Below are positions 43,901 to 63,762 of a stretch of DNA of 64,000 nucleotides, in pieces. Position 1 is the first letter of the stretch; every line of letters begins with the position of its first letter. Under the pieces are notes generated by a model. It was not told the DNA's origin. It searched no databases and was given only the letters and a program-made list of their open reading frames with translations. Source of the DNA: an uncultured Muribaculum sp. GTDB taxonomy: Bacteria > Bacteroidota > Bacteroidia > Bacteroidales > Muribaculaceae. A program made the position numbers and the translations under genes. Location of the stretch: the NCBI GenBank assembly GCA_964651105.1, contig CAZYXN010000001.1, positions 179 to 64,178 of the forward strand. The letters are read 5' to 3'.

Positions 43901-44175
43901 TTAAACCATGGTTCTCCAATGTCGTTAGAGTATTGAACGAGCGGCCTTTTATAATAATGGATAAGGATGGTTCAAAAAGATATCGTCCCGATAGAGTTGT
44001 GTGGACTGAATCGGGAACGATAGATATAATTGATTTTAAATTTGGAGAAGAGGAACCTAAAAAATATTTCTATCAGGTTAGGCGTTATATGAAGCATCTT
44101 TCCTCGATGTTTCCGGAAATGCCGGTAAATGGATATCTTTGGTATCCCTTGGAAAGCAAGATAATTCGAGTTTAA
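40906..44175 (+). CDS. UvrD/AddA-like helicase with a C-terminal PD-(D/E)XK nuclease
   Basis: [54 protein letters not shown]; nuclease motif RPDRV...IIDFKFG...QVRRY. Confidence 0.92.
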
Positions 44176-47100
44176 ATACTTCCGGTATTGCTACTTGGCG
44201 GCACGTTATCCACATCTTTGAACACTTTTGAGAGTACATTTTCTTGCAACCGCTGCATAAGTTCCCAGAAGTTGGGCACAAACAATGTTCCAATAACGGC
44301 ATTAAGCAACATGCCGAATACGACAGCGGTACCAAGTGAGACGCGGCTTTCGGCACCTGCTCCGGTTGCAAACATCATCGGCATTACTCCAAATATAAAT
44401 GCGAGAGCGGTCATCATAATAGGTCGGAACCTTATAACTCCGGCATCGAGGGCCGAGGTTGTCAGCGGAGTGCCTGACTTACGGAAATAAGTGGCGTATT
44501 CGACAATAAGGATGGCATTCTTTGCCGATAATCCGAGTAAAAGAATAAGTCCGATCTGGGTGTATATGCTTATACTTTGTCCCATTAATATGCAGCCGAG
44601 GACGGTGCCGAGGATAGCTACTGGCATTGACAATACCACAGCAATAGGATCAGTCCAGCTTTCATATTGAGCCGCAAGGACGAGGAGAGTCATTATTATC
44701 GCGAATATGAATACAACCGAAATGGTGGTGCCGGATTGGGTTTCTTGATACGCTTCGCCTGTCCATGCGTATGAATAATTGTTCCCCAATGTGCGCGTGA
44801 ATAGATTTTCCATAGCTTTTATACCGTCGCTTGAGCTTACTCCGTCGGCGAGATTGGCTGTGAGGGATGCAGCGCCATACATGTTGTAGCGAGAGGAGGT
44901 AGGTTCTCCCATTGTCGGCTCGATAGTCGTGAATGCCGAGAATGGAACCATGGCTCCGGCCGAGTTACGGACGCTGAGTTTAATCACATCCTCTATGTTT
45001 CCGCGTGCCGAGTCATCGCCCATAAGTGTCACTTGATATACTCTCCCGAAATCATTGAAGTCATTGACATAATTTCCTCCCATATATGCTGAAAGGGTTG
45101 AGAATATGTCGCTCATTTCAAGACCCTGGAGTTTTGCTTTGTTACGATCTATGTTGAGGCTGTATTGGGGGACGGTGCCCTGAAATAAAGAGGTGACGGA
45201 CTTTATTTTAGGCTCATCCTTGACTGCTTCCCTAATGCTTTCAATAGCTTTTTTTAATTCGGCGGCTCCATGATTGTTGATATCAAGCACCATCATTTCA
45301 AGTCCGGATGACATTCCAAGCCCCGGAATTGATGACGGATTGACGGAAAAGGTCACCGCTTCCTGATATTTGGCTGCGATTGTGTTGACGCTGTCGATTA
45401 GAGCAAATACGCTTTGTCCTTTTTTTGTACGTTCTTTCCATGGCTTTAAAACGACCATTAGCGTGCCCATGTTTGATGACGCTCCTCCTCCCATCATCGA
45501 GAATCCTGAAATTGCCATGACATCTGATATTTCAGGCAAACGTTTCCTCATTTCGTCTGACAGTCCGTTGACTATTTTTTCTGTGCGTTCGAGCGATGCT
45601 CCCTGAGGTAGTTGCACTGACGTGATAAAATAGCCTTGGTCTTCTTGCGGTACGTAACTTGTCGGCCACTTAATGAATGCGAAAATACCGATAAGCGCTA
45701 TCGCCAGGAATACAGTAAGTGAAATACCGGCATGATTAAGCATGTGGCTTACGCATTTCTTATAAAAATTTTCAGTTGCCGTGTAGCAGGTATTGAATAT
45801 CCGGTATACAGGGTTCTTGGTATTTTTATTACGCGGAGTGAGGAAAAGAGCGCACATCGCCGGAGTGAATGTCAATGCGTTGAATCCCGAAAACGCGGTC
45901 GATACGGCTATGGTAAGAGCGAATTGTTTATATAGCTGTCCCGTAATTCCACTAACAAATGCCGTTGGAATGAAGACCGACAGCAATACAAGCACTTCCC
46001 CGATAACAGGACCGGTCAATTCCTGCATAGCTTTTTCTGCGGCTTGCCGGCGCGACAATTTTCCGGTATCGACAAGCCGGGCACAGTCTTCAACCACGAC
46101 AATGGCATCGTCCACGACTATTGCAATCGCCAGGACAAGTCCGAACAACGTCAGCGTGTTTATTGTGAATCCCATTATTTTCATTATCGCGAACGTTGCG
46201 ATAAGCGACACCGGAATAGTGAGCATCGGTATGACTACCGCTCTCCAGTTTTGTAAGAACAAAAGAATTACGATAAGTACGATTAAAGATGTCTCGACAA
46301 AAGTGGTCAGCACTTCGTCGATTGACGCTGTAACGTAGTCCGAGGTGTCGAGAACCACTCGGTATTTTACTCCTGGAGGAAAATATTGGCTTAGGCGTTC
46401 CAGTTCCGCTCTGGCTCCTTTTGACACTTCGAGCGCGTTGGCTCCTGGAAGTTGTCTCACTCCCAGCAGTGCCGCCTGATTTCCTGATACGAGAGTGTTG
46501 GCGATATAAGATATGCTTCCAAGATCGACTTTAGCGACATCTTTCAGACGCAATATGCCATTGCCGTCACTGCGGATGATGATATTGGCAAATTCTTCGG
46601 CTTTTGAGAGCTCTCCTTGAGACACGATGGTAAACTCGAAAGCTCCTCCGGTAGGGTTAGGCGCGGCTCCGACTTCTCCGGCCGAAACTTGCATATTCTG
46701 TGATTGTATGGCGGCTCTGACATCGGCAGGTGTCACACCTCTGGCCCTCATAAGTTCAGGATCAAGCCATACACGCATACTGTAGTCGCCTCCGCCAAAT
46801 GCTTCAACACCGCCTACTCCTTTTACTCGTGACAGTGAGTTTACAAGATTAATATTTGCGTAGTTAGTAAGATATAGCGCGTCATATCTTCCCGAGCTGT
46901 CACCTTCGAGAGTGCAGAAAAGCACGTTGTTGGTCGATTCTTTATTGACAGTTATTCCCTGTTCCTTTACTGCGGTAGGTAGTGTGGTCTCGGCGGCGTT
47001 CAGTCTGTTTTGCACATTTATGGCTGCCTGGTCTATATCTGTCCCCTGCTCAAAGGTTATGGTCAGGTTATAACTGCCGTCAGATCCTGAATTTGAACTC

Positions 47101-47336
47101 ATGTAGAGCATGTCTTCCACGCCGTTTACTTGCTCTTCGATAGGAACTCCTACTGTCTGAGCCACAGTTTTTGCGTCGGCTCCTGGATAGTTGGCCATTA
47201 CGCTTATGGTTGGTGGCGTGATGTCGGGATATTGAGCTACTGGGAGAGTGTGTATTGTGATGAGGCCGGCAAAGACCATGATAATCGCCAGTACAGTGGC
47301 GAATATCGGCCGGTCTATGAAATATTTTGAAAACAT
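44172..47336 (-). CDS. RND efflux permease (HAE1/AcrB-like)
   Basis: FIDRPIFA start, [23 protein letters not shown] and RFRPIMMT proton-relay motifs. Confidence 0.96.
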
Positions 47337-47370
47337 GATCGAATGGATGTGGAAATTAAACAATACCGAG

Positions 47371-48504
47371 TTATTTGATTTCTATCGGCTTTATTGTCAT
47401 TCCGTCGCGTACTTTCAGCAACGCTGATGTGACATATCTGGAGTTCGGGCCGATACCTTCGGTGATGACACGCAAGGAGTCGTTGTATAAATCTCCGGTT
47501 TTAATCGGGGTATATACTATTTTGTCTGAGTCATTGACAACATATAAATATTTGCCGAGTTGATCAGTGCCTATTGAAGAGTCTTTGACGAGAATCGCTT
47601 TTGCGTTTTCACCGAATGGCATGTGTACATTTGTATACATGCCGTCTTTTATTTCTCCATATGGATTCTCCACATTTATTTTGATAGTGAGAGTTCCCGT
47701 GGACTTGTCGACGCTTGGGGATTGGTAGCCCAACTGTCCGGAATAGTGATGTGCAAGCGGTTCGGTGAATGATAGCGGGATGCTGTCATATAAGCGATGG
47801 CCTATGGGGGTTTTTATTTCTCCCATTATTTTTTCGTATTGTTTTTCCTCTATAGCGAAAACAATCACTACTTTGGAATCGTCATAGATGGTCGCCAGCA
47901 CATATGGGCTTCCTTCTCCGTTTATATAGTTTCCGACATCGGTTGTGCCGCTGTTAATGTGTCCGGTGTATGGCGCTCTTACCGTGCAGTATGCCAGATT
48001 GGTTCGTGCTGTATTGAGTGCGGCTTTGGCGGTTTTTATCGCGGCTTGTGCATTTTCCATGTTTGTGCGTGCCTGTATGACCTCTATTTGTGCCACCGCG
48101 TCGCTTTCAAGAGCTTTTTTCATGGCGGTATATTGATTGGAAGCGTATTGGTAGTCGCTTTCGGCTTTGCTTAAAGCGGCTTCCGCCTGATTTACAGCAT
48201 CGACATAGTTTGTTGACTCGATTGTGAAAAGCCTTTGCCCTTTTTTCACAAAATCTCCCCCCGAATAATCTTTGGTGAGCAGCGTTCCATTGACTCTGCC
48301 CACCACATTTGCCGTGTTCCATGCATATGCATATCCCGGATAGGTTTTGTATAATACGATTGAATCTACAACCGGAGTGGTTACATAGATTTCAGGCAAT
48401 TCACCTGTTGTTGTGTTGCTCTTTTTGTCTGAACATCCATTAATGCTAAAAATTAGTGATGCGGCAATAACATAGCGATATAGTCTGGAAGTAATCATAT
48501 TCAT
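47371..48504 (-). CDS. RND periplasmic adaptor (MFP) lipoprotein
   Basis: Lipobox [23 protein letters not shown] and STGTLTIK motifs. Confidence 0.93.
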
Positions 48505-48525
48505 GAGATTTTAACGGTGACTAAA

Positions 48526-49941
48526 TTAATTTAAGGCCCATCCTCCCCCAAGTGCCTCATAGAGGGCTATCAGGGCTGTAAGCGCCTTTCCTTTTGATTC
48601 GATTATAGAGTTTTGGTAGGCTAAATAATTAAGCTGTGCCGTCACGACATCTGTAAATGGGTTCAGGCCCTTTTTGTATAAATCGAGTGAGAGATCGAGC
48701 GACTGTCGGCTGTTGTCAATCACATCATTAAGTATTGATATGTTTTGAAGTGTGGCTGTGTATGATAAAATCGCATTGTCTACTTCCTCCACAGCGTTCA
48801 TTACGGTAAAATTATAATTGTCTATGCCAATTTCCATCTGTTCACGTGCTGATATTACATTCGCTCTTCTGGCGAGTCCGTCAAATACAGTCCAGCTGAG
48901 AGTCGGAGCAAGTGTATAGGTGAATGTCTGTTTTTTGAAAAGGTCGCCGACATCGTGTGAGGCTGTGCCTATTGAGGCATTGAGCGACAATGCGGGAAGA
49001 AAATCCTTTTTGGCGATGCCGAGTTGAGCCGCATATTGCGCGAGCTGAAATTCGGCTTCAACAATGTCGGGTCTGCGTCTCAACAATTGTGTCGGTACGC
49101 CGATAGGTACAATTTGCCGGTAATCCGGGAGCTGTTGCGGGGTTTTTAAACGTGAATAAATGGAATCAGGATATACGCCTGTCAGAATTGCAATAGAGTT
49201 GATAGTGGTGCGGATTGCCGATTCAAGTCCAGGAACCGATGCTTGAGTGGAATAATAGACGACTTTTGCTTGAGCCACGTCGAGCATCGACGCAAGTCCC
49301 GCTTCGTGGCGCGCCTCTGTAATTTTGACTATTTTGCCTTGTGAAGCTATGTGTTCCATTGCCACCTGATGTTCCGCCTGATACATTCGGAGTGTTATAT
49401 AGGATTTGGCGATGTTGGCGCATAAGGCTGTCATTACCGCCGCATATTCTGCCTTAGTTGCATCATATGCAGCTTTGCTCGCTTTGGCTTTAGCTGTGAT
49501 TTTACCAAAGATGTCAATCTCCCAGTTCATATTGAGGCCGAGTGAAAAATAATCGGATGTAGTCGCATCCGCTAATTCGGCGCCCATGCCTCCCGAGGAA
49601 CGTGTTTTCTGCCATCCTGCGTTAAGTCCTACGGATGGCATATACCCTGCACGCGCGCTGTTGACAGCCTGTGCGGCCATATTGATGCGATGTGCGGCTG
49701 TCAATACATTATAATTATTGGCAATGCCTTCGGCTATCAGTGAATCAAGGCATGAATCCTCAAATGTTTTCCACCAGTAATCGTCAGTAGGTATATCTTG
49801 TGAAAAATATTCCGTATACGACCAATTTTCAGGAATCTCTTTGTCAAGATATTTCCCGATTTTGTCATTGGTCGCATTCAAGCTTGACGAGCATAACAAT
49901 GATGTGGTGAAAAATATGCAACTTATAGGTATGAATCTCAT
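48526..49941 (-). CDS. Outer-membrane efflux channel (TolC/OprM-like)
   Basis: WWKTFEDSCLDSLI, NWEIDIFG, LLRRRPDIVEAE, LYEALGGGW. Confidence 0.95.
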   Translation of the reverse strand: MRFIPISCIFFTTSLLCSSSLNATNDKIGKYLDKEIPENWSYTEYFSQDIPTDDYWWKTFEDSCLDSLIAEGIANNYNVLTAAHRINMAAQAVNSARAGYMPSVGLNAGWQKTRSSGGMGAELADATTSDYFSLGLNMNWEIDIFGKITAKAKASKAAYDATKAEYAAVMTALCANIAKSYITLRMYQAEHQVAMEHIASQGKIVKITEARHEAGLASMLDVAQAKVVYYSTQASVPGLESAIRTTINSIAILTGVYPDSIYSRLKTPQQLPDYRQIVPIGVPTQLLRRRPDIVEAEFQLAQYAAQLGIAKKDFLPALSLNASIGTASHDVGDLFKKQTFTYTLAPTLSWTVFDGLARRANVISAREQMEIGIDNYNFTVMNAVEEVDNAILSYTATLQNISILNDVIDNSRQSLDLSLDLYKKGLNPFTDVVTAQLNYLAYQNSIIESKGKALTALIALYEALGGGWALN

Positions 49942-53336: not shown

Positions 53337-53346
53337 GGGGGGGGGG
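53337..53346. repeat. G10 homopolymer upstream of the TBDT operon promoter
   Basis: AAAAC-GGGGGGGGGG-TAGC, ending 26 nt before the -7 element. Confidence 0.9.
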
Positions 53347-53372: not shown

Positions 53373-53380
53373 TACATTTG
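53373..53380 (+). promoter_or_regulatory. -7 promoter element of the TBDT/DUF4876 operon
   Basis: TACATTTG, 43 nt upstream of ATG 53424. Confidence 0.65.
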
Positions 53381-53423: not shown

Positions 53424-56276
53424 ATGCGAATATCATTATTGGCTATGTTAAGAATGATGGTAGTTCTCGTTATTATGGGAGCTGTATCATCTCTGGCGGT
53501 AGAGGCCCAGGAAGCTAATACCTTCAGCATACGCGGTACTGTTTACGAGTACACGCAACCGGGAGATTCCGTGGCTTTGGGTTTTGCCACTGTGACGATA
53601 CCGGATTATGGAATCGCTACCACAACGGCAGCCGACGGACACTATTTGTTGAAAGGTGTTCCTAAAGGGAAAGCTACGATAAAAGTTTCTTATGTAGGTA
53701 AAGTGACCATTGAAAAAGTTGTGGAGGTTTCAAAGTCGATGACTTTGAATTTTTCAATGCGTGAAGAGAACTTCAAATTGAAGGAAGTTATGGTCACCGC
53801 GCAAGCTTCACAGGCAGGTGGCGCCACCTCTTCTATCATAGGGCGTAACGCGATGGACCATATGCAGGCTACGAGTCTTGACGATGTATTGTCGCTTCTT
53901 CCCGGAGAGTTGTCGACCGAGCCTAACTTGAGCGGAAATAAGGAGGTGAACATCCGTAATATCGCTTCCGGCCCTTCTGCAATGAACGCAATGGGTTCTG
54001 CGATTATCCGAGACGGCGCTCCGATTTCAAATAATGCCAACCGTTCGGTTATAAGTCCGGGATTTAATGGTACTATGGAGAATTATAACGCAGGTGGCGG
54101 AGCCACTCCTGACGGTGGTGTCGATTTGCGTTCTATCTCTACCGACAACATTGAATCGGTGGAAGTGATTCGCGGTATTCCCTCTGTAGAGCACGGCGAT
54201 CTCACTTCAGGCGCTGTGATTATTAATTCCAAAGCAGGACGTGAACCTATACGTATCACTGCCAAGGCAAATCCTAAAGTATATATGGGTTCGGCAAGCG
54301 GCGGCTTTTTGCTTAATAAAAACCGTGGCGGTCTTAATTTCAATGTGGATTATGCTCACAATACCAATAATCCTACACAATCTTACCAGACTTATCAGAG
54401 AGCTTCGGGGCGTGTTATGTATTCCAAAGAGTTCTCGCAGAAATTGCGCACCAATACTTCGTTGAACTTTATATATGGAAAAAACAATCGCGCCCTTAAT
54501 CCTGATGATGAGAGCTATCAACGCAAGTCTCGCGGTGAAGAATACGGAATAACATTGAATACCAACGGATTGTGGAGTATTGACAAGGGTATCCTCAAAT
54601 CTCTCCGTTACGTGGTGTCTGGTACATATACATCCAAACAATCTCGTTATCAGAGTATCGTTTCGTCAAATAACACTCCTTATTCAGGAACTCTTGTCGA
54701 CGGAACGGTGGTGTCCAATACACCGGGCAAACACTTGTTTGATGCCGATGGCAATGAAATTACAAACTTTGGAGGTGTTGATGCCGATAAATTCGCTTAC
54801 TGTTTGCCTGCCAATTATCTTTCATGGAATAAGATAGATTCACGAGAAGTCAATATCTTTGCCAAACTTGTCGCTACATTGTTCAAGCAGACAGGCTATA
54901 TCAACAACCGTGTTCTTCTTGGCGCTGACTTCCGTAGTGACGGAAACGTGGGACATGGTAAATCATGGGATCCGCAGGGGCCTCCCGAACGAGAAGTCAG
55001 CCGTCCTAACGGTGTTATGCGTCCTCATGAGTTCCGTGACGATCCGTTCCTAAATCAGCTTGGCGTTTTTGCTGAGGAAAATTTCATGTGGCAGATGGGG
55101 CTTCATGAGTTGCGTTTGCAGGCCGGTGTCCGTTATGATCACGCCAATCGTGTTGGCGGTATTGTATCTCCCCGTTTCAATGGTTCGTTTGAGATTCTTC
55201 CTTCAAAATTATGGATTCGCGGCGGATATGGTGTGACTGCAAAGATGCCTACGCTTCTATATCTCTATCCGGAAAAAGTTTATTTTGAGTATGTAAATCT
55301 GAATGAACTCTCTTCTACAAAAATTCCAGAAGAAGATCGTATATACATGACGACTACCAAAATACATGATGTGGATGTGTCGCATCTGAAGATTGCCACC
55401 AACCGTAAGGCAGAAATCGGTTTTGACTTGCGTCTGGGCAGATCAACCTTCAATGTTACCGGATTTTTCGAACGTCTTAAGAACGGTTATTCTTATGTGA
55501 CCAATCTGAATACTTTCGCTCCATTCGAATGGACTGAATATAAGCGTGACGCTAATATGGGATTGATTGAAAGCGCCACTAATACAGTGCTTTCCGACTG
55601 GCGTGCTCCGGGTAATGATTTGTCATTGACAACCCGTGGTGTGGAATTTGATTTCTCTCTCGGACGTATTGAAAAAATTAATACCACATTCTCGCTAAAC
55701 GGTGCATGGATTCGTTCAAAAAGTCGTAATGGCTCATATGATTTCTACGATCCGACATCGTCTATGTCCGCTGCAAGCCGTAAAGATATCGCCATTTATG
55801 CAGGAAATGCTCTTACTCGCTATGACGAGCGGTTCGCGACAACTTTGCGTGTGACCCATAACTTGCCTAAAATCGGTTTTGTTGTCACTCTGTCGGCTCA
55901 GGCCGTATGGAAAGATGCCAATTGGGGAAAATATGGCAACGATTCTATTCCTGTAGGTTACATGTCGCTTAAGGACGGACAGCCTCATTTCTTCGAGGAT
56001 GGACAGTTCAATACCGTTGAGGAATTCCGTGACTCGGAATACAGTTATATGTATCGTGCCGCCAACCATCCTCTTGAGAAGCGTGAATCGTACAATCCTT
56101 ATTTTTGCTTCAATATGAATGTGACTAAAGAGCTTGGTGACATGATGCGTGTGTCATTCTTTGCAAACAATATGTTCCGAAGCTATCCGCGTCGTGAGTC
56201 TCACCGTAATCTTGGAACTTATGTGTTGAAAAACAATCGTTTCTATTTTGGAGTGGAACTTTCTATCACCCTTTAA
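53424..56276 (+). CDS. TonB-dependent outer-membrane transporter (non-SusC type)
   Basis: Signal peptide; carboxypeptidase-regulatory-like N-domain; LKEVMVTA TonB box; ATSLDDVLSLLPG; NIESVEVIRGIPSVEHGDLTSG plug motif; barrel strands. Confidence 0.93.
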   Translation: MRISLLAMLRMMVVLVIMGAVSSLAVEAQEANTFSIRGTVYEYTQPGDSVALGFATVTIPDYGIATTTAADGHYLLKGVPKGKATIKVSYVGKVTIEKVVEVSKSMTLNFSMREENFKLKEVMVTAQASQAGGATSSIIGRNAMDHMQATSLDDVLSLLPGELSTEPNLSGNKEVNIRNIASGPSAMNAMGSAIIRDGAPISNNANRSVISPGFNGTMENYNAGGGATPDGGVDLRSISTDNIESVEVIRGIPSVEHGDLTSGAVIINSKAGREPIRITAKANPKVYMGSASGGFLLNKNRGGLNFNVDYAHNTNNPTQSYQTYQRASGRVMYSKEFSQKLRTNTSLNFIYGKNNRALNPDDESYQRKSRGEEYGITLNTNGLWSIDKGILKSLRYVVSGTYTSKQSRYQSIVSSNNTPYSGTLVDGTVVSNTPGKHLFDADGNEITNFGGVDADKFAYCLPANYLSWNKIDSREVNIFAKLVATLFKQTGYINNRVLLGADFRSDGNVGHGKSWDPQGPPEREVSRPNGVMRPHEFRDDPFLNQLGVFAEENFMWQMGLHELRLQAGVRYDHANRVGGIVSPRFNGSFEILPSKLWIRGGYGVTAKMPTLLYLYPEKVYFEYVNLNELSSTKIPEEDRIYMTTTKIHDVDVSHLKIATNRKAEIGFDLRLGRSTFNVTGFFERLKNGYSYVTNLNTFAPFEWTEYKRDANMGLIESATNTVLSDWRAPGNDLSLTTRGVEFDFSLGRIEKINTTFSLNGAWIRSKSRNGSYDFYDPTSSMSAASRKDIAIYAGNALTRYDERFATTLRVTHNLPKIGFVVTLSAQAVWKDANWGKYGNDSIPVGYMSLKDGQPHFFEDGQFNTVEEFRDSEYSYMYRAANHPLEKRESYNPYFCFNMNVTKELGDMMRVSFFANNMFRSYPRRESHRNLGTYVLKNNRFYFGVELSITL

Positions 56277-56289
56277 TTGAAAAACAGCT

Positions 56290-57546
56290 ATGAAGAAATA
56301 TCTATATACTTTTTCTGCGGTTGTCGCCATGATGTCTCTTGCGTCCTGTGACCAGTTCAAAGAGGCTAATGACGCGGCGCCGGTAGAACCGATAAAAATC
56401 TCTCTTGACCTCAACACGGCCATTGGAGGAGGCGAAGAGGTCACTTTTGGCGACGAGATGATTGTGAAGCTTGACAATTATACTGAAGGACTTCATTATG
56501 AAAAATCATTTTCAGGATCAAAAGTTGAAATAGACGGTGTTGTGCCTGGAATTTATTCTGTTAATGTTTCCGGTACAGCGACTCTTTCTGACGGAACCGA
56601 ATACATTCTTGCCGCCAGTATGATCAACAAGCCGCTTATTGAATCGCTGAATTTCCCGTTGGAGCTTAAAGGTTCAATGAAAGGAACTTTGGTGTTTTCT
56701 GAGATATATTATTGTGGTAGCAAGCCTCCGACAGGATTCTCTTGGTTCCGTGACCAGTTCTATGAGATTGCCAACAATACCGATGAGGTCCAGTATCTTG
56801 ACGGCTTGCATTTCGCTCATACCGACCGTATTAATTCAGATCACACTATGCCTATCTGGCCGGAAAGCGACGAGGGTAAATATATCTATCTTGACCGTGT
56901 ATGGAAATTCCCGGGTTCAGGTACCGACTACCCTCTTCAACCTGGTGAATCGTGTGTAGTGGCTCAGTTTGCAGCCAATCAGAAACTTGAGATTTATAAT
57001 CCCAACTCTCCGGTGGATTTGTCGACAGCCGAATTTGAATTCTGTATGAATAATCCGAATTATCCCGACCAGCCTGCTGTAAATATGGAGCATGTGTATT
57101 ACGATGGCAGTGACGCAATGCTTCTTCCACAATACTTGACTCCGGTGTTTGGTTGCGGTTATGTGCTATTCCGTATTCCCGACGGAGAGACTTGGAATCC
57201 GGCACATGATTTGACGCTTCAGACTAAAAACGCCGCTGATTCATGGTCGGATATTTTTGCCAAGCTTCCTTTGGAATATGTCATTGATGTAGTAGAGGCT
57301 ACTCCAAATGAATCATATGTGGCAGAGAAAAATATACCTGCCGTTCTTGATGCCGGTTTCGTGACAGTGGGAGGTATCTATCTTGGCCAGGGAGTGACAC
57401 GTAAACGCGACACTAAAACTGTAGCCGCCAATGGGGCAGTTCTCTATCAGGACACCAATAATTCTTCCGAAGACTTTGAGTGTAACGTAGTTCCTGTTAT
57501 TCACCGTCATTCCGGTGTTCCCTCATGGAATCCATCTCTCCAATAA
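56290..57546 (+). CDS. DUF4876-like surface lipoprotein
   Basis: Lipobox LASC followed by DQFKE; LVFSEIYYCG, DQFYEIANN, FPGSGTDYPLQPG, QDTNNSSEDF. Confidence 0.8.
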   Translation: MKKYLYTFSAVVAMMSLASCDQFKEANDAAPVEPIKISLDLNTAIGGGEEVTFGDEMIVKLDNYTEGLHYEKSFSGSKVEIDGVVPGIYSVNVSGTATLSDGTEYILAASMINKPLIESLNFPLELKGSMKGTLVFSEIYYCGSKPPTGFSWFRDQFYEIANNTDEVQYLDGLHFAHTDRINSDHTMPIWPESDEGKYIYLDRVWKFPGSGTDYPLQPGESCVVAQFAANQKLEIYNPNSPVDLSTAEFEFCMNNPNYPDQPAVNMEHVYYDGSDAMLLPQYLTPVFGCGYVLFRIPDGETWNPAHDLTLQTKNAADSWSDIFAKLPLEYVIDVVEATPNESYVAEKNIPAVLDAGFVTVGGIYLGQGVTRKRDTKTVAANGAVLYQDTNNSSEDFECNVVPVIHRHSGVPSWNPSLQ

Positions 57547-57558
57547 TTTTAAGACAGT

Positions 57559-59211
57559 ATGAAAATGAGTAAAATTTATAACATCCGCAAAATAGGAGCG
57601 ATTGCTCTTCTATCATCATTATGCGTCCCGGTGACGATTGCGCAGGAAGCGAGAGAGCATGCCAACCACAGTCATGAGGGAGAGGCGTGCTGTGCAGATT
57701 GCAATCATTCCGCCTTGTCGCCGGAGGGATATTCTTCAGCTTCTCTTGAATTGTTGAAAGAACGTCGTCTCTGGTTCCATTCGACCAATGCTGCCGGAGC
57801 GATATTTGACAACAAGCAGAATTATTCTGAAGTCAAAATCGGCTATGACCGTGAATCTGGCAACTATCACCGTCCGCAACAGGGTCAGCTGGTTATTAAT
57901 GCCGGTGTAGACTGCGAGGGCTTCATGAATCTTGGAAATGCCTTGGTATGGGGCGAATTCTCATTTAAGCAGCGCAATATAGACAAGGCCGGGTTCAATG
58001 CGTCAATATCCGATCCATATCGCGGGATGCCGTTTTTTATCGCTGACGAGCATCTTAGCGATTGGCGCAATCAGTATTATAATATGAAATTCCGTGCCTC
58101 TACACCTCTTTATTGGGGCAAAGTGGCTTTCGGTGTTGAAGGAAATTATCGTGCCGATCTTGCTGCAAAGCAGCTTGACCCGCGTGTCGACACCCGTTAT
58201 TTTGAGCTTGGGGTGAATCCGAGTGTGGCCTATTCAATTGACCGCCATAATTCTATCGGAGCCGTATTCGAATATACCGCGCTTAAGGAGGATTCTCGAA
58301 TGGAAAGTGTAAACATGTCTGACCCTCAGAATGTTTACTGGCTTAACGGTCTTGGGACGGCTATAAAGGAGATTGTGGCTTATGATCTGCCGCGTACCGA
58401 TTATCACGGTCATATCTTGGGGGGCGGTCTGCAATATAATTTCCGTAAAGGCGGTTTCAATCTGCTCGCGACTGTCGATTTTACACGCCATATCGAGAAT
58501 ATGGATAAGAATCCGCAAGTTCCCGAAAAGAAGTCGTCAGTGAGAAATGATTTGTGGAAATATTCCGTTCTGTTCCGTTATCATGGAAAAAGTTGGAGCC
58601 ATCATTTCAATTTTGAAGGAATAGAACGCAATAACCATGGTATTCAATATATCAATGAATTCAACAACAGCGAGAACAATCCTGGTTGGAAAGTGCTGGA
58701 TCACAGTGTCCGTTCCACATATAAAACTACGGCTTTCAATGTAGACTATTCACTTATCCGCAACCGTGCCGACGAATATGCATGGCGTGTTGATGCCGGA
58801 ATCTCTTACCAGTATCAACGTGACGAGTATCTTTTGCCTGATGCCCATAAATCGTATAAGAATATTTACAGTCATCTGACGGCTAAGTATAATGCTGCTC
58901 TTGGCGCCAAGTACAACCGCCGTCTTCTGATTGCCGCCAATGGAGGGTTCAATCACAATATCGATGGCAAGTATACTTACAACGCTTCTAATCCCGATTT
59001 TCCTACAGTGACTCAGCTTGAGACCGGCGAAATCCAATATTTCTCTTCCGATTTCTGGAATCTTGGCGCTTCGGTGTCATATTCACAGCAGATAAAGGAA
59101 TCGAACAGAATGAATGCTTATGCGCGCGCTGAATTCAATTATGTGAAGACCCACAGCTATGATTTCAACAATCGTCGCTACATGGCGTTTGCCATCGGTG
59201 TGACATTCTGA
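57559..59211 (+). CDS. DUF6850-like outer-membrane beta-barrel protein
   Basis: Signal peptide; amphipathic strands; NAxG, DPYRGMPF and DPR motifs; C-terminal Phe (IGVTF). Confidence 0.75.
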   Translation: MKMSKIYNIRKIGAIALLSSLCVPVTIAQEAREHANHSHEGEACCADCNHSALSPEGYSSASLELLKERRLWFHSTNAAGAIFDNKQNYSEVKIGYDRESGNYHRPQQGQLVINAGVDCEGFMNLGNALVWGEFSFKQRNIDKAGFNASISDPYRGMPFFIADEHLSDWRNQYYNMKFRASTPLYWGKVAFGVEGNYRADLAAKQLDPRVDTRYFELGVNPSVAYSIDRHNSIGAVFEYTALKEDSRMESVNMSDPQNVYWLNGLGTAIKEIVAYDLPRTDYHGHILGGGLQYNFRKGGFNLLATVDFTRHIENMDKNPQVPEKKSSVRNDLWKYSVLFRYHGKSWSHHFNFEGIERNNHGIQYINEFNNSENNPGWKVLDHSVRSTYKTTAFNVDYSLIRNRADEYAWRVDAGISYQYQRDEYLLPDAHKSYKNIYSHLTAKYNAALGAKYNRRLLIAANGGFNHNIDGKYTYNASNPDFPTVTQLETGEIQYFSSDFWNLGASVSYSQQIKESNRMNAYARAEFNYVKTHSYDFNNRRYMAFAIGVTF

Positions 59212-59260: not shown

Positions 59261-61414
59261 ATGTGCCTTAATTCATTTCTTGGCGTAGCATTATTGATCG
59301 GTCTGTGCTCCCCGGCGGGGGTACAGACTATTGTCAAACCTGATGCCAAGATTTCCAAAACATCATTTGCTATTATAACCGATACGCCTTTGTGGGAAGA
59401 GTGTTCTGAAGAAATGAGCCGTTTTGCCGCTCAGTTACAATCGGAAGGTCTCCCCGCATTTATCGTTTATGACCGGTGGAAATCGCCGGAGCAGGTGAAA
59501 AAAGTAATTAAAAACCTTTATAAGAAGCATTCTCTTGAGGGTGTGATGCTGGTAGGGGATGTGCCTGTCGCTATGATTCGCAAGGGGCAGCACCTCACAT
59601 CGGCGTTCAAGATGGACGAAGAGAGCGATTGGATTGATTCTTCGGTTCCGTCTGATCGTTTTTACGATGATTTCGACCTTAAGTTTGACTTTATACGTCC
59701 TGATTCCGCCCGGCAGGGATTTTTTTACTACAATCTTGCGGCGGAGTCGCCACAACAGATCAGGTGTGACATCTATTCTTCACGCGTGAAGCCGATAGAC
59801 AATGGCGAACCGAGAGCCGTGCAGATAAAGAGATTCTTTAATAAGGCTGTAGCCGAACATAAAGCTGATAACCGTCTCGACCAATTTTATTCTCATACCG
59901 GCGACGGTTCATATTCCAATTCTTTGAATGCGTGGACGGCAGAAGCCGCTACGATACGTGAGCAGATGCCCGGAACATTTGATAGTCCCGCTTCTCCGGG
60001 ACGTGCCCGATTCACACGTTACAGCTTCAGTCCGTATCCAAAGCGTGACATCATCAATATGCTGAAAAATGATAAGCTTGACCTTGCCATTTTCCATGAA
60101 CACGGTATGCCGGCCCGACAGTATATATCGGGTATTCCTTCTTCAGAGGATCTTGATACACACGTTAAGTTATATCGGGAGCACCTCAGGGATCGGGCTC
60201 GTCGCATAGCCGGCGATTCCGCGAAGTATGCAGCTTTTGAGGCTGATAAAAAAGCTCTCGGGCTTGAACCGGCATGGTGGAATGACTACAATACTCCGGA
60301 GCAAGTCAAGGCTGACTCGATAACTGATGCCGACCGTGGAATTATGCCGGAAGATATAACCGCTTTCAAGCCCAATAGCCGAATGGTTATTTTCGACGCA
60401 TGTTATAACGGAGATTTCCGTGAACCGGACAATATTGCCGGCCGCTATATTTTTGCCGATGGAAAGACTGTCGCTACTTTTGCCAACAGTGTGAATGTGC
60501 TTCAGGACAAACAGGCTAACGAGCTTCTCGGCCTTCTGTGGCTTGGCGCCAGAGTAGGACAGTGGGCAAAGGAAACCAATATCCTGGAAAGTCATATAAT
60601 AGGTGACCCGACATTCCGCTTCAGTTCATCTGTACCTGGAGTCGACGCAGCCGAGATATGCCGCCGTCCTTATAATGAAGCTGATGAACGTGAGATGCTC
60701 AAATCGGAATATGCCGATTTGCGTAATCTTGCAATGCACAGATTATGGAGCAATGATGCCAAAGGGCTTTCCCCTATGTTGGCTGAAATTTTCCGCACAT
60801 CTCCGGTCGCTATGGAGCGTTACACCGCATTAAGCTTGCTTGAGAAAATCAATGATGCCGAATATCAGGCTATTCTTCCTGACGCTTTGTGTGACGCAAA
60901 TGAATTTATTCGACGCACTACCGTGAGCCGTATGGGGCATGTGGGGAAAGACAATTATGTCAAGTGTCTTGTGGATGCTTATTTTGATGACACACAGGCG
61001 ACTCGAGTAGTGTTCCAGATAGAGAATAATATCCATCATTTCGGAGAGGATGCCTTCAACAAGGCTATTGCCTCATATGATGGCGAGCGTGCCGACAAAT
61101 TACGTAAAGCATATGAGAGACGTAAGAGCGCCGATGAGGCGATTCTCAACCATGACGGAAAATACCGTAAAGTGTATATCAAGTCATTGCGAAACGGCAA
61201 TATTCATGCCACTCTTTCCGATTATCTTGCATTGCTTGAGAGTCCGGAAGAATCCGATGATATAAAGGTAGCCATGCTCGACGCTCTTGCATGGTACAAT
61301 CACTCCTACCGTCGTAATGAAATACTTGCGGTATGCGAGCGTCTGACCAAATCGTCAGGAGTATCCAAATCTGTAAAAGATCAGGCTAAACGCACTTATT
61401 TCCGTCTTAAATGA
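59261..61414 (+). CDS. Peptidase C25 (gingipain)-like domain plus HEAT repeats, paralogue 1
   Basis: Signal peptide; VMLVGDVP, SDRFYD, FHEHG (His at 60101), FDACYNG (Cys at 60401); HEAT-like C-terminal half (ALCDANEFIRRTT). Confidence 0.7.
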   Translation: MCLNSFLGVALLIGLCSPAGVQTIVKPDAKISKTSFAIITDTPLWEECSEEMSRFAAQLQSEGLPAFIVYDRWKSPEQVKKVIKNLYKKHSLEGVMLVGDVPVAMIRKGQHLTSAFKMDEESDWIDSSVPSDRFYDDFDLKFDFIRPDSARQGFFYYNLAAESPQQIRCDIYSSRVKPIDNGEPRAVQIKRFFNKAVAEHKADNRLDQFYSHTGDGSYSNSLNAWTAEAATIREQMPGTFDSPASPGRARFTRYSFSPYPKRDIINMLKNDKLDLAIFHEHGMPARQYISGIPSSEDLDTHVKLYREHLRDRARRIAGDSAKYAAFEADKKALGLEPAWWNDYNTPEQVKADSITDADRGIMPEDITAFKPNSRMVIFDACYNGDFREPDNIAGRYIFADGKTVATFANSVNVLQDKQANELLGLLWLGARVGQWAKETNILESHIIGDPTFRFSSSVPGVDAAEICRRPYNEADEREMLKSEYADLRNLAMHRLWSNDAKGLSPMLAEIFRTSPVAMERYTALSLLEKINDAEYQAILPDALCDANEFIRRTTVSRMGHVGKDNYVKCLVDAYFDDTQATRVVFQIENNIHHFGEDAFNKAIASYDGERADKLRKAYERRKSADEAILNHDGKYRKVYIKSLRNGNIHATLSDYLALLESPEESDDIKVAMLDALAWYNHSYRRNEILAVCERLTKSSGVSKSVKDQAKRTYFRLK

Positions 61415-63630
61415 GCCGAATCATGAAACAACTGTTATTTTCATTTATAATGGCTGTGACTGCGGTATTTTCCGCGTCAGCCGATATCGTGATTGACAAG
61501 CCTGTAAGCAAGGATTGTCCAACATCATTCGTTATTATTGCCGACAGCGCCACTTGTGCGGCTACCCGTCCGGCGATGCTTCGTTATAAAAACGCGCTTG
61601 AGGCCGACGGTCTCGCTACTTATATCGTAAGCGCTGATTGGAAGTCTCCGACACAGGTGCGTGAGACGCTTAAGAAGCTGTATGCGTCTGACCCGAAAAT
61701 AGAGGGTATAGTCATTGTAGGCGATGTGCCGGTAGCGATGGTCCGTAACGGTCAGCATATGACCACCGCATTCAAGATGGATGAGGACGCATTTCCTTTT
61801 ATCGATTCTTCGGTGCCATCCGACCGTTTCTATGATTGCCTCGACCTTGATTTCCGGTTTTTGAAGCAGGATGAGACCGAGAACCATCTGTTTTATTATG
61901 AACTCGCTGAGGATTGTCCGCAGCGTCTTAATCCTACCTTCTACTCAGCTCGTATACGTTATCCGAAATTACGTGGAGGAGATAAATATGAAGAGATTGC
62001 GAAGTTCCTTGATAAGGCGGCTTCGGCAAAAGCCGATATGAAGACGGATTGTGTGGATCGTGTGGTTTCGTTTAACGGCCACGGCTATAATTCCGATTGC
62101 CTTATTGCATGGATGGATGAGGAGAAAGCCTATAGAGAGCATTTTCCGGCAGCTTTCAATACATCGACCGGTTTCAAACATTGGAATTTCAGAATGGAAG
62201 AACCGATGAAGCCGGCGATATTCAAGGAGCTTGAGCGTCCAGGCATTGATTTGTTCATGTTCCATGAACATGGCGCGCCTACCACTCAGTATATAAACGG
62301 TTATGGAGAGGCTGAGAGTCAGGATGCCCGCTTGCGGTATATAAAACTTGGCATATATTCCCGCATCGAACGTGCGGTAAAGAAAGGCAATGACGAAGCA
62401 GAGGTGATCGAGGCATTTGCCAAGGAATATCAGCTTGATTCATGTTTCTTCAAGGATTTGCACAATCCTGAATTTGCCGCATCCGATTCAATTGCATATG
62501 CTGCGAAGGATATTGAGGCTAACGAGTTTCATAATCGTGTGACTATGCCGCGAATGGTTATGTTTGACGCATGCTACAACGGTTCGTTCCATGAGGATGA
62601 TTATATCGGCGGCGAATATCTCTTTAATCCGGGAACCACGCTTGTTACACAGGGTAATACGCGTAATGTGCTCCAAGACCGATGGACTATAGAGATGATA
62701 GGGCTCTTATCTCACGGAGTGCGTGCCGGACAATATAATCGTCTGGTAGCGACTCTCGAAGGACACATGATGGGCGATCCCACTGTGAGATTCGCTCCGC
62801 TGGAGCCCAACACGCTTTCAGCTGATATGACTCTTCGTAAGGCTGACCGAGCATATTGGGAGTCTTTGACAGAATCCCCGTATGCCGATGTCCGTTCGAT
62901 AGCCTTGAGAATGCTTTCGGCTATTACTCCCGAATCTGAAATGTCGCCGAAGCTGCTTGAGATTTTCCGTACATCTCCGTTTAATACCACGCGTATGGAG
63001 GCTCTTAAACTTCTTGGAAATTATTGCAATGCCGATTTCAAGGAAGCTGTGCGTCTGGGATTAAACGATCCTTATGAACGTATAGCGCGCATGAGTGCGG
63101 ACTTTGCGTCGGAAATAGGTGATACGGCTCTTCTTCCGGAAGTGATTGAAGCCTATATCGATGGCAATGAGCGGCAGCGTGTCAACTATACCTTGGGAAG
63201 CTCGCTTATTCTGTATCCCAAGGAAGACGTAATCAAGGCGGTCAATAACTACTATTCGTCGGCAAACCGTTTCAATGCCGATGAGGAAAAAGCCGAGCTT
63301 ATCGAGGGTATATCTCATTCATATGAGCGGGCAGAAAAGGATAACGAGGCAATAAGCGACACTACCCTTACGGAGAAGATACGTGTACGGAACATCCGTT
63401 TTGTCCGCAATAATCCGTTCCACTATCAGCTTGACAGGTATCTGGCTACGATTGCCGACAGCGGCAACTCCGACAAAATCCGTGTGAATATGGCTGAAGC
63501 TCTCGGATGGTTCAAATATTCTTATCGTAAAGGAGAGATTCTGGATTTCTGCGAAAAAATGATTGCTGCCGATGATGTGCCTGATGTTGTGAAAGCTGAA
63601 CTTCGTCAGACAGCCAATCGACTGAAGTGA
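61411..63630 (+). CDS. Peptidase C25 (gingipain)-like domain plus HEAT repeats, paralogue 2
   Basis: Signal peptide (likely start MKQLLF); IVIVGDVP, SDRFYD, FHEHG (His at 62269), FDACYNG (Cys at 62572); HEAT-like repeats (LGLNDPYERIAR). Confidence 0.7.
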   Translation: MSRIMKQLLFSFIMAVTAVFSASADIVIDKPVSKDCPTSFVIIADSATCAATRPAMLRYKNALEADGLATYIVSADWKSPTQVRETLKKLYASDPKIEGIVIVGDVPVAMVRNGQHMTTAFKMDEDAFPFIDSSVPSDRFYDCLDLDFRFLKQDETENHLFYYELAEDCPQRLNPTFYSARIRYPKLRGGDKYEEIAKFLDKAASAKADMKTDCVDRVVSFNGHGYNSDCLIAWMDEEKAYREHFPAAFNTSTGFKHWNFRMEEPMKPAIFKELERPGIDLFMFHEHGAPTTQYINGYGEAESQDARLRYIKLGIYSRIERAVKKGNDEAEVIEAFAKEYQLDSCFFKDLHNPEFAASDSIAYAAKDIEANEFHNRVTMPRMVMFDACYNGSFHEDDYIGGEYLFNPGTTLVTQGNTRNVLQDRWTIEMIGLLSHGVRAGQYNRLVATLEGHMMGDPTVRFAPLEPNTLSADMTLRKADRAYWESLTESPYADVRSIALRMLSAITPESEMSPKLLEIFRTSPFNTTRMEALKLLGNYCNADFKEAVRLGLNDPYERIARMSADFASEIGDTALLPEVIEAYIDGNERQRVNYTLGSSLILYPKEDVIKAVNNYYSSANRFNADEEKAELIEGISHSYERAEKDNEAISDTTLTEKIRVRNIRFVRNNPFHYQLDRYLATIADSGNSDKIRVNMAEALGWFKYSYRKGEILDFCEKMIAADDVPDVVKAELRQTANRLK

Positions 63631-63673: not shown

Positions 63674-63724
63674 GGGCTGTGTCACTGCATGCATTCAGGT
63701 AATGCTGATGACACAGCCCTTTCT
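63674..63724 (+). terminator. Rho-independent terminator of the TBDT operon
   Basis: GGGCTGTGTCA (63674-63684) / TGACACAGCCC (63709-63719), inner GCATT/AATGC stem, followed by TTTCT. Confidence 0.75.
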
Positions 63725-63762
63725 ATACCCTGAAAAAGAGGGTGACTGTCGTTTTTATTTTG

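Follow-up and report, generated by a model that had tools for sequence, protein, structure and literature searches.

What do two tandem genes encoding HEAT-repeat proteins contribute to the locus in which they lie, given that both carry, ahead of their repeats, motifs that recall the gingipains of Porphyromonas? The genes are found near the end of the window, the 64,000-nt stretch of Muribaculum DNA that was analysed as a whole, and the initial annotation had read them as hiding an intact His-Cys dyad split by a large insertion. All coordinates given here refer to the forward (+) strand. The first gene, p1 (59261..61414; 717 aa; orthogroup A), and the second, p2 (61411..63630; 739 aa; orthogroup B), each encode a C25-type peptidase domain plus HEAT protein; the p2 start overlaps the p1 stop by 4 nt (ATGA), the two genes are translationally coupled, and their products are paralogous over the full length (36% identity, BLASTP E 9e-136). 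Four motifs recur in both paralogues, precisely where they had been placed before, with first nucleotides in p1 and p2, respectively, at 59552 and 61717 (VGDVP), 59651 and 61819 (SDRFYD), 60092 and 62260 (FHEHG), and 60392 and 62563 (FDACYNG). The dyad of p1 comprises His281 of the HG motif (60101..60103), following β-strand 275-279 and aligned with His211 of gingipain RgpB, and Cys381 in FDACYNG (60401..60403), following β-strand 375-379 and aligned with RgpB Cys244; the p2 equivalents are His287 (62269..62271) and Cys388 (62572..62574). The reported His-to-Cys spacings of 100 and 101 are confirmed, as is the reference point taken from RgpB, whose PDB sequence (4ief_B/1cvr_A) has His211 in TGHGS and Cys244 in FDVACVNGDF, 33 residues apart. 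Among the candidates scored, 1775 relatives of p1 were found at E <= 1e-5. His, Cys, D132, R133, R175, Q415, D416, and E443 (p1 numbering) are present in 211/211 family ORFs from 80 loci, and across 124 diverse cluster representatives the His and the Cys are each kept in 122, a degree of conservation far beyond chance.

Judged from sequence comparison, the N-terminal 440 residues of p1 and p2 very probably form a peptidase-type domain of family C25 (clan CD) whose active site is retained. The assignment is indirect, resting on relatives with shorter His-Cys spacing and on hhalign mapping. Pfam Peptidase_C25 gave no match to p1 or p2 at E <= 1, profiles of the N-domains matched no PDB chain, and in Pfam and PDB sequence searches with p1 and p2 the HEAT tail alone was detected. 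In structure comparison, none of the 50 Foldseek matches listed for the N-domain model (pLDDT 94.6) is a gingipain, PorU, a caspase, or a legumain, which counts against the C25 reading. Relatives in which His and Cys are spaced by 34-58 hit the window N-domain profile with E values of 1e-84 to 1e-100, and four of them exceed the Pfam Peptidase_C25 cut-off of 23 bits, namely P0260 (47.2 bits, E 2.4e-12), P0261 (36.0), P0259 (33.4), and P0266 (26.8). When 95 such short variants were aligned with 16 gingipain-type C25 proteins by hhalign, 296 columns covering RgpB 1-348 were obtained at a global probability of 94.6% (E 1.5e-8) and a local probability of 66%. The window-type profile kept the same register after removal of the insertion (299 columns, global probability 52%, E 2.1e-5) and aligned over only 62 columns with the insertion left in. 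In p1, the C25-like catalytic domain extends from residue 24, directly after the signal peptide, to residue 462 (59330..60646), as delimited by the AF2 model and by hhalign, which covers RgpB 1-351; it was modelled with a pLDDT of 94.6 and a pTM of 0.93, with hydrophobic strands preceding both His and Cys. The alignment carries H211, G212, C244, N246, and G247 of RgpB onto H281, G282, C381, N383, and G384 of p1, and further D93 onto D132, R112 onto R175, N281 onto N412, and GDP340-342 onto GDP448-450. The His-Gly and Cys-x-Asn-Gly motifs thus appear, with support from this mapping, to occupy the catalytic positions, and the earlier proposal of a C25/clan-CD domain has held up. Neither Asp163 of the RgpB S1 (Arg) pocket nor the aligned Glu152 position is conserved in the p1/p2 family, so that specificity, and even peptide-bond hydrolysis, must be called putative for p1 and p2. 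In the alignment column of RgpB Trp284, the S1 lid of the RgpB structure, the p1 group has Ser, Gln, or Met and the p2 group has Trp. This difference fits differing specificities of p1 and p2, and together with the translational coupling it weakly favours the idea of the initial annotation that the two copies may differ in specificity or form a heterodimer; in that annotation the insertion would serve as a lid and the HEAT solenoid in substrate binding or auto-inhibition. As a whole, the interpretation given there is partly supported.

The wider spacing, 100-101 as against 33, is due to a helical insertion that separates the His strand from the Cys strand and comprises residues ~296-345 in p1 (60146..60295) and, as placed by alignment to p1, residues ~302-352 in p2 (62314..62466). 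The AF2 model confidently renders it as a helical bundle of ~50 residues, with helices spanning p1 298-316 and p1 320-332 as well as the first part of helix 346-358 (pLDDT 94-97). In agreement with its previous description as divergent and helical, the catalytic domain diverges most at p1 291-350: p1/p2 identity falls there to 20% versus 47-49% in the conserved core, and column entropy within the family amounts to 2.82 bits versus 1.75-2.27. The bundle is lineage-specific and missing from the relatives with a spacing of 34-58, and its absence there explains why Pfam recognises those relatives but not p1 or p2.

Further downstream, both proteins continue into a HEAT-repeat solenoid, formed by residues ~481-717 in p1 (60701..61411) and ~489-739 in p2 (62875..63627; boundaries from the p1 alignment). 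The Pfam HEAT_2 score is above the cut-off of 27.7 bits for p2 (31.9) and below it for p1 (22.6), and among PDB entries the tail strongly matches alphaRep HEAT proteins by profile (E 1.8e-27); in the predicted model, the p1 tail is all-helical, and Foldseek returns HEAT and armadillo proteins for it. At the other end, a signal peptide was assigned to p1 residues 1-23 (59261..59329), with an approximate cleavage site read from the hydrophobic N-terminus and the family consensus (...AQT.IKP). Most members lack a lipobox. Neither a C25 propeptide nor, as already recorded in the initial annotation, a T9SS C-terminal domain was found in p1 or p2 at E <= 1 in Pfam and NCBIfam. Both proteins are accordingly predicted to be exported, with a signal peptide and without propeptide or T9SS tail, and their location is probably the periplasm.

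The main clue to the function of p1 and p2 is their genomic context, as they are the last two genes of a five-gene outer-membrane uptake operon. The operon is preceded by a putative Bacteroidetes -7-type promoter box, TACATTTG (53373..53380, direct reading), which fits the consensus TAnnTTTG. Its first gene encodes a TonB-dependent receptor of 950 aa (53424..56276; Pfam CarbopepD_reg_2 E 1.2e-13, Plug E 5e-10), the second a DUF4876 lipoprotein of 418 aa (56290..57546; Pfam DUF4876 E 1.3e-45) with the lipobox LASC followed by DQFKE, putatively a surface lid of the receptor, and the third a DUF6850 protein of 550 aa (57559..59211; Pfam DUF6850 E 4.2e-109). The latter is probably an outer-membrane β-barrel; it carries a signal peptide, and its last residue is Phe (...AIGVTF), as is common in outer-membrane barrels. 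The genes are closely spaced, and the operon closes with a perfect 11-bp inverted repeat (63674-63684 / 63709-63719) followed by a terminator-like hairpin with a T-rich tail (63726-63744); an unrelated DEAD-box helicase gene begins at 63802. The order TonB-dependent receptor, DUF4876, DUF6850, p1, p2 is kept in every locus with enough flank, the receptor being upstream of the pair in each of these and the DUF6850 gene syntenic in the 75 loci that extend far enough. A third C25-HEAT paralogue is common among the loci, and one lineage adds to the operon the genes for a papain-type (C1) peptidase and a HmuY-domain protein (haemophore family). With at least 576 matching stretches in a collection of one genome per species, the operon is conserved across hundreds of gut Bacteroidales species. 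The initial annotation had been silent on this operon and on its iron response in a relative.

The counterpart in Bacteroides thetaiotaomicron, BT1933-39 (HEAT repeat protein, DUF4876, TonB receptor), is induced modestly, 3.5-7.4 fold, upon iron depletion, and 20-214 fold induction was reported for PG1019-22, taken here as the receptor/DUF4876 module only (PMC10434189). PG1019/1020 are also induced in a haem-starved P. gingivalis hemH mutant. DUF4876 proteins, including BT1938, have been proposed as receptor lids (bioRxiv 10.1101/2023.03.17.533168), and a B. fragilis homologue is exposed on the surface. We assign a probability of about one half to the reading that best accommodates all of this, according to which p1 and p2 are exported C25-HEAT peptidases in an iron-linked uptake operon; that they process the iron-linked cargo of the transporter in the periplasm is a more tentative part of it, to which we give somewhat less than even odds. 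We propose that, under iron limitation, receptor and lid would bind and take up a peptide or protein linked to iron or haem, and that the non-redundant C25-HEAT paralogues (two, or three in many species) would then cut it in the periplasm, setting the metal or cofactor free. The solenoid might hold the cargo or a partner, and the helical insertion might limit access to the active site, standing in for the propeptide control of gingipains.

A different site of action is conceivable, with the C25-HEAT proteins working extracellularly, at the surface or on vesicles, and cleaving host or dietary proteins so as to liberate an iron or haem ligand before its uptake. The C25 members that have been characterised, gingipains and PorU, do act at the cell surface; the operon supplies an extra outer-membrane barrel, DUF6850, on which p1 and p2 may dock in the way that the barrel PorV holds PorU; and the HmuY-domain and C1 peptidase genes added in one lineage would suit such a scheme. 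We nevertheless consider it unlikely, since p1 and p2 lack the T9SS tail, since the lipobox is absent in most members and the rare ones come without an acidic export signal (11/12 lipobox-bearing short-spacing relatives have no acidic residues after the Cys, by a crude regex), and since the operon also occurs in Bacteroides and Phocaeicola, genera not known for a T9SS, with no alternative export route evident.

The C25 scaffold might also have been retained without peptide cleavage, its His/Cys cluster (H279-x-H281, C381, E443, H445, D379) binding metal, haem, or another imported ligand for periplasmic hand-over of the receptor cargo. The iron response of the operon would fit this idea, as would the loss of the RgpB S1 Asp and the H-x-H adjoining the dyad, where position 279 is His in 90/124 representatives. 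E443 and H445 are almost invariant as well, but the motif that contains them is shared with gingipains (LDTWTVFGDP). The Foldseek matches listed for the N-domain model were periplasmic-binding-protein and LacI folds, which would likewise suit a binding role, although their scores were very poor (TM 0.09-0.20). What makes a purely binding function rather improbable in our eyes is that the exact C25 catalytic signature is kept, with Gly after His and Asn-Gly after Cys, residues usually lost in pseudo-enzymes, and that the dyad is retained in three separate paralogue lineages.

Alternatively, p1 and p2 could be processing enzymes or transpeptidases with PorU-like sortase chemistry, acting on partners of their own system rather than on imported cargo, for example in the maturation or attachment of the lid lipoprotein, of the N-terminal carboxypeptidase-regulatory-like domain of the receptor, or of the DUF6850 barrel. 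The C25 domain of PorU catalyses transpeptidation and thus sets a precedent, a dedicated partner would agree with the way p1 and p2 strictly co-occur with three envelope proteins, and HEAT solenoids typically mediate interactions between proteins. Two or three paralogues with intact dyads, however, seem too many for one maturation step, and an unsystematic look at the partners revealed no conserved cleavage or sorting motif, which leaves this idea with a low probability. A general importer of peptides or proteins as nutrients, with peptidases in the periplasm and a merely indirect iron response, would agree with the small induction in B. thetaiotaomicron, with the lack of a clear phenotype of BT1938/BT1939 across 519 fitness experiments in that species, and with the fact that no Fur-type operator was identified upstream of the operon, but appears very doubtful given that in three Bacteroidota species the loci most strongly induced by iron depletion include receptor-DUF4876 modules, that haem starvation induces PG1019/1020, and that the operon of one lineage contains a HmuY-domain gene.

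The closest characterised enzymes are RgpB and Kgp of Porphyromonas gingivalis (MEROPS C25, clan CD; PDB 1CVR, 4IEF, 4RBM), with which p1 and p2 share the motif order VGD..P, SD..Y, GR, H-G, (D)AC.NG.F, N.., GDP, the aligned His-Gly and Cys, each behind a hydrophobic strand, and the Bacteroidota host background. Unlike the gingipains, p1 and p2 have no propeptide, Ig-like or haemagglutinin domains, or T9SS tail, their S1 Asp163 is unconserved, and they display family insertions such as an invariant QH.T.AFKM.E loop in addition to the wider dyad spacing, the C-terminal HEAT solenoid, and a place in a TonB-receptor operon. The T9SS sortase PorU (PDB 6ZA2), which matches RgpB at E 2.8e-8, exemplifies a C25-family role other than bulk proteolysis, exerted with an outer-membrane barrel partner; it is surface located and part of the T9SS, whereas p1 and p2 are devoid of T9SS features, and the likeness runs via RgpB and the general description. 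As a mechanistic analogy only, the Fus system of Pectobacterium (FusA/FusC) and the YddB/PqqL system of E. coli each encode a TonB-dependent importer together with a periplasmic protease that is regulated by iron and digests an iron protein once it has been imported (PMC6042079, PMC6793856). The Fus and PqqL proteases belong to the M16 metalloproteases and come from Proteobacteria, whereas p1 and p2 would by our assignment be clan CD cysteine peptidases with HEAT tails, in operons that have two or three such peptidases and also encode a lid lipoprotein and a further barrel. C25 and gingipains go unmentioned in the cited survey of protease-associated import, where Bacteroides figures only as a SusC comparison.

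By its published locus description (BT1938 DUF4876, BT1939 receptor), BT1933-BT1939 has the gene content of the window operon, and Bacteroides loci in our set (L009) contain this operon type with three paralogues. In contrast to our C25 reading of p1 and p2, their B. thetaiotaomicron counterparts are annotated as hypothetical or HEAT repeat proteins only, and we found no literature linking the B. thetaiotaomicron HEAT repeat proteins to C25. In Prevotella and other Bacteroidales, the short-insertion C25-HEAT proteins (e.g., P0260, P0325, P0366) agree with p1 and p2 in family, architecture, conserved residues, and operon slot, where they are the third paralogue in L046/L047, and differ in their shorter spacing, the missing bundle, and the lipobox present in some. 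A C25 label, which the initial annotation had not mentioned, is already attached to these short-insertion relatives in public databases: many carry PF01364 and PF13646 in precomputed annotation, and one is named 'C25 family cysteine peptidase' at NCBI.

The tandem genes p1 (59261–61414, plus strand, 717 aa) and p2 (61411–63630, same strand, 739 aa) encode proteins that are paralogous over their full length (36% identity, E 9e-136), and the p1 stop codon overlaps the p2 start codon in an ATGA at 61411–61414, which suggests translational coupling of the two. The initial annotation had proposed that these HEAT proteins hide a gingipain-like His-Cys dyad with a large insertion, and the four motifs behind this proposal, (L/I)VGDVP, SDRFYD, FHEHG and FDACYNG, were found where it had placed them in both paralogues: the His of the HG pair lies at nt 60101 (aa 281) and the Cys at nt 60401 (aa 381) in p1, and at nt 62269 (aa 287) and nt 62572 (aa 388) in p2, in agreement with the proposed spacings of 100 and 101 residues. 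Its reference values for RgpB, the Arg-gingipain of Porphyromonas gingivalis with catalytic His211 and Cys244, likewise agree with the PDB sequence (4IEF/1CVR). The segment between His and Cys, described there as the most divergent, is indeed the least conserved part of the N-domain, with 20% identity between p1 and p2 versus 47–49% in the conserved core. The presumed absence of a T9SS tail also held, as neither the Pfam nor the NCBIfam search of p1 and p2 gave one. The C25 propeptide (PF08126), Ig-like (PF03785) and T9SS C-terminal (PF18962) domains, which canonical relatives carry, had no match in either protein, so that, unlike the gingipains RgpA, RgpB and Kgp, p1 and p2 are devoid of all three; the NCBIfam search of the pair gave nothing relevant to C25. 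A loop with the pattern QH.T.AFKM.E (p1 residues 110–120, window 59588–59620), invariant or nearly so throughout the family, represents an insertion relative to the gingipains between the GD..P and SD..Y motifs and is a candidate partner- or substrate-binding element.

Direct searches left the N-domain unassigned: Peptidase_C25 (PF01364) gave no match to p1 or p2 at E ≤ 1, and a phmmer search with p1 as well as family profiles built from 7–18 sequences returned, among PDB chains, designed HEAT (alphaRep) proteins alone and nothing for the N-domain. A profile search with the N-domain, however, retrieved 743 clusters (50% identity) at E ≤ 0.001, a minority of which have a His-Cys spacing of 34–58, and these short-spacing relatives score against the window N-domain profile with E values of 1e-84 to 1e-100. 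Four exceed the Peptidase_C25 cut-off of 23 bits (47.2, 36.0, 33.4 and 26.8 bits), and searching from the short forms led to a large clade carrying precomputed PF01364 and PF13646 assignments, one member of which bears the NCBI name ‘C25 family cysteine peptidase’. For profile-profile comparison by hhalign, a C25 profile was built from 16 sequences, namely RgpB (sequence from the PDB) and 15 collected gingipain-type C25 proteins. Aligned with this profile, 95 short variants gave a global probability of 94.6% (E 1.5e-8) and a local probability of 66%, the alignment being collinear over 296 columns and spanning RgpB 1–348. When residues 296–345 were removed from the window-type profile, the register was unchanged and the global probability was 52% (E 2.1e-5, 299 columns); with the insertion included, hhalign aligned 62 columns locally and nothing globally. 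This collapse of the alignment in the presence of the insertion explains why Pfam misses p1 and p2. Against RgpB as a single sequence, the register was correct at a probability of just 12.9%. Considered together, these comparisons lend moderate support to homology of the p1/p2 N-domain with C25 through intermediate sequences, and the idea of a hidden gingipain-family dyad, a large insertion and a HEAT fusion is thus backed at the level of sequence by the short-spacing relatives. Membership in C25 as such is not new to the databases, in which short-insertion members are already labelled C25. What has so far gone uncharacterised is how the domains are combined, the form with the insertion, the presence of several paralogues and their obligatory association with a TonB operon that responds to iron.

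In the profile alignment, the catalytic positions coincide, His preceding Cys and Gly following His, with the contexts DLAIFHEHG and RMVIFDACYNG in p1. RgpB residues G77, D93, R112, H211, G212, C244, N246, G247, F249, N281 and G340-D341-P342 correspond to p1 residues G99, D132, R175, H281, G282, C381, N383, G384, F386, N412 and G448-D449-P450, respectively. Among 124 full-length cluster representatives, Asp132, Arg133, Arg175, Gly448 and Asp449 are each kept in all 124, Gly282 and Gln415 in 123, His281, Cys381, Asp416 and Glu443 in 122, Gly384 and His445 in 120 and Asn383 in 116. A separate count on 211 family ORFs from 80 genomic loci found the dyad together with D132, R133, R175, Q415, D416 and E443 retained in 211/211, a degree of sequence retention that places the C25 active-site signature under selection in every locus paralogue. 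Rare pseudo-enzyme members exist, to judge from one protein (P0267) that has lost both His and Cys. Two others of about 1400 aa (P0121, P0122) look like two C25-HEAT paralogues joined end to end and may be either genuine fusions or artefacts of read-through in gene calling.

As to specificity, the acidic S1 residue that confers Arg specificity on RgpB, Asp163, is invariant in 16/16 gingipain-type sequences; its counterpart in p1 is Leu222, in a column occupied by Leu or Met throughout the family, so that the specificity is not expected to be gingipain-like, with the proviso that the alignment is less certain in this stretch. The paralogues fall into three orthogroups (p1 slot, p2 slot and a third copy), all of which retain the dyad. 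The position aligned with RgpB Trp284 is Ser, Gln or Met in the p1 group and Trp in 82/84 members of the p2 group and 44/44 of the third, a difference that would fit non-redundant specificities of the paralogues.

Structure prediction yielded a full-length p1 model from 18 sequences (pLDDT 83.6, pTM 0.81) and an N-domain model (p1 24–462) from 63 diverse sequences (pLDDT 94.6, pTM 0.93). Hydrophobic β-strands precede His281 (275–279) and Cys381 (375–379) in the p1 model, and between them four helices are predicted (298–316, 320–332, 346–358 and 363–369). The helical character surmised for this segment was thereby borne out, and with a pLDDT of 94–97 for these helices, the insertion is predicted to be an ordered helical bundle rather than a floppy linker. 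The predicted C25 domain starts directly after the signal peptide, leaving no room for a prodomain. Foldseek matches to the full-length model were dominated by HEAT proteins, and the N-domain model searched against the PDB gave no gingipain, PorU, caspase or legumain among the best 50 of 1505 matches (E ≤ 10). A periplasmic-binding-protein/LacI fold was considered for the N-domain and discarded, the listed Foldseek matches being poor (TM 0.09–0.20, rmsd 13–22 Å).

HEAT_2 (PF13646) is the sole Pfam domain detected in p1 and p2, in their C-terminal third, scoring 31.9 bits in p2 (above the cut-off of 27.7) and 22.6 bits in p1 (below it). The family profile matched alphaRep HEAT proteins of the PDB with E 1.8e-27, the C-terminal model is all-helical, and Foldseek gave HEAT and armadillo proteins. 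Two readings of this tail were rejected. One, a di-iron enzyme of HEAT type like deoxyhypusine hydroxylase, appeared among the Foldseek matches but is at odds with the lack of conserved His-Glu pairs in the HEAT domain. For the other, a bilin-lyase-like or NblB-like tail, there was just a weak NblB match (E 0.0011, 18.6 bits versus a cut-off of 300) along with weak Foldseek matches to MpeQ.

p1 and p2 are the last of five tightly packed genes, preceded on the plus strand by a TonB-dependent receptor with carboxypeptidase-regulatory-like and plug domains (53424–56276), a DUF4876 lipoprotein (56290–57546) and a DUF6850 protein (57559–59211) ending in a C-terminal Phe, as is common in outer-membrane barrels. 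A -7-type promoter box lies upstream of the five genes and hairpins follow p2; the flanking genes, a SpoU methylase upstream and a DEAD-box helicase downstream, are unrelated to the operon. When one genome per species was scanned, at least 576 stretches matched, in Muribaculaceae, Bacteroides, Phocaeicola, Prevotella, Alistipes, Odoribacter, Butyricimonas and others, the closest among the matches listed belonging to Muribaculaceae (71% identity). The order receptor, DUF4876, DUF6850, p1-type and p2-type gene was present in all of the 80 loci with enough flank. A third paralogue is frequent downstream or upstream of this conserved order, and in Prevotella-like loci the p1 slot is occupied by a short-insertion C25-HEAT gene. 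On the downstream side of the paralogues, no gene family turned up repeatedly in the 80 loci. In one Prevotella-like genome (L081 and L082, 14199–16003), two more genes follow in the operon, one for a papain-type peptidase (Peptidase_C1) and a small one with an HmuY domain (haemophore family). A complete Bacteroidales-type operon with 70% identity to the window was also found on a contig (L004) labelled as a ‘Paenibacillus sp.’ MAG, which is probably mis-binned. Directly after its signal peptide, the DUF6850 protein of the window carries a His/Cys-rich stretch of 24 residues, QEAREHANHSHEGEACCADCNHSA (57643–57714), which may be a lineage-specific metal-binding tag. As a metal clue it was dropped, since it is missing from all of the about 75 orthologues in the fetched loci.

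The counterpart of the operon in B. thetaiotaomicron, BT1933–39, annotated as hypothetical proteins, a HEAT repeat protein, DUF4876 and a TonB receptor, is up 3.5–7.4 fold upon iron depletion, and the receptor/DUF4876 module PG1019–22 of P. gingivalis is up 20–214 fold (PMC10434189); PG1019/1020 are induced in a haem-starved hemH mutant as well (PMC13096392). DUF4876 proteins have been proposed to be lids of non-SusC TonB transporters, and 519 fitness experiments revealed no clear phenotype for BT1938/BT1939 (bioRxiv 10.1101/2023.03.17.533168). A DUF4876 homologue of B. fragilis is surface-exposed (bioRxiv 10.1101/2023.03.17.533168; PMC4319957). We found no characterisation in the literature on BT1934–37, on the combination of C25, HEAT and TonB, or on DUF6850, and no paper treating these HEAT proteins as peptidases.

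We infer that p1 and p2 are active Cys peptidases. They probably stay in the periplasm, since a signal peptide is present, a T9SS tail is not, and most members are without a lipobox, the rare lipoboxes that occur lacking an acidic export signal in our admittedly crude analysis. There they might act on the cargo that the receptor brings in when iron is limiting. Since a prodomain is lacking, access to the active site may be restricted, and the substrate held, by the ordered helical insertion and the HEAT solenoid as the most obvious candidates, which is speculation at this stage. In Fus and PqqL-YddB, the nearest precedent for such a mechanism, a TonB-dependent importer works with a periplasmic M16 protease that is under iron control and degrades the ferredoxin taken up (PMC6042079, PMC6793856), and the window operon similarly co-encodes a TonB-dependent importer and a putative protease. 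Its protease class is C25 instead of M16, so the likeness is one of analogy and not of membership, and C25 is not covered in the survey cited for this class; iron regulation, a feature of Fus and PqqL-YddB, is known for a relative's locus alone. By this analogy, the operon could do in Bacteroidales what protease-associated import systems do in Proteobacteria, a reading to which we assign a probability of about 0.25. An iron-starvation-induced TonB-dependent transporter with its DUF4876 lid would then import protein- or peptide-bound iron or haem, and two or three non-redundant periplasmic gingipain-family peptidases, possibly acting as a hetero-oligomer, would digest the cargo and free the metal, each with its helical insertion doing the gating that a propeptide would otherwise do, and holding the cargo on its HEAT solenoid.

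Other readings stay in consideration. The C25-HEAT proteins might act at the surface, before import, which we regard as unlikely, with the localization features of p1 and p2 themselves pointing to the periplasm. Similarly doubtful is that the His/Cys cluster binds a ligand or metal, as it is kept along with the remaining positions of the C25 signature. Maturation of operon partners by the C25-HEAT proteins would suit the strict operon linkage and appears improbable to us. Just as improbable is an iron-independent peptide importer.

To our knowledge, C25 is known almost solely from the secreted Porphyromonas gingipains and the T9SS sortase PorU. Here a probable C25 scaffold is encountered in another form, without propeptide or T9SS tail, with a helical bundle separating His and Cys and with HEAT repeats at the C-terminus. 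A large share of Bacteroidales, with Bacteroides, Phocaeicola, Prevotella, Alistipes and Muribaculaceae among them, have two or three copies of this form per genome, always tied to one TonB-dependent receptor operon that is iron-responsive in B. thetaiotaomicron. Probable cysteine peptidases thus emerge among genes annotated as hypothetical or HEAT repeat proteins and provide a concrete hypothesis on iron or haem acquisition by gut commensals, open to test by mutating the active site, by activity probes and by trapping substrates with Cys-to-Ala variants. If the analogy with the protease-associated import systems holds, this would be the first case of a clan CD/C25 protease demonstrably working in the periplasm, as well as a new route of iron piracy in dominant human gut genera. 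The case also illustrates that a large insertion can hide a well-known enzyme family from routine annotation.

Regarding control of the operon, the search for RNA-seq runs returned just gut metagenome DNA with partial matches, and no Fur-like operator is common to the receptor-upstream regions of 61 loci. The motif TATACCTAA / TTAGGTATA, absent from the window, occurs in 11/61 loci (L002, L015, L026, L029 and others), no more than 200 nt ahead of the receptor gene, and may be the site of some regulator. The window has a run of ten G residues at 53337–53346, at a distance of 27 nt from the -7-type box that follows it and 78 nt from the receptor start codon. The upstream regions of the closest loci (L001–L004) lack this run, which could make the operon phase-variable by slipped-strand mispairing. 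Further upstream in the window (44172–49941, minus strand) and unrelated to the C25-HEAT pair, there is an RND efflux operon encoding an AcrB-type pump, a membrane-fusion protein and an outer-membrane factor.
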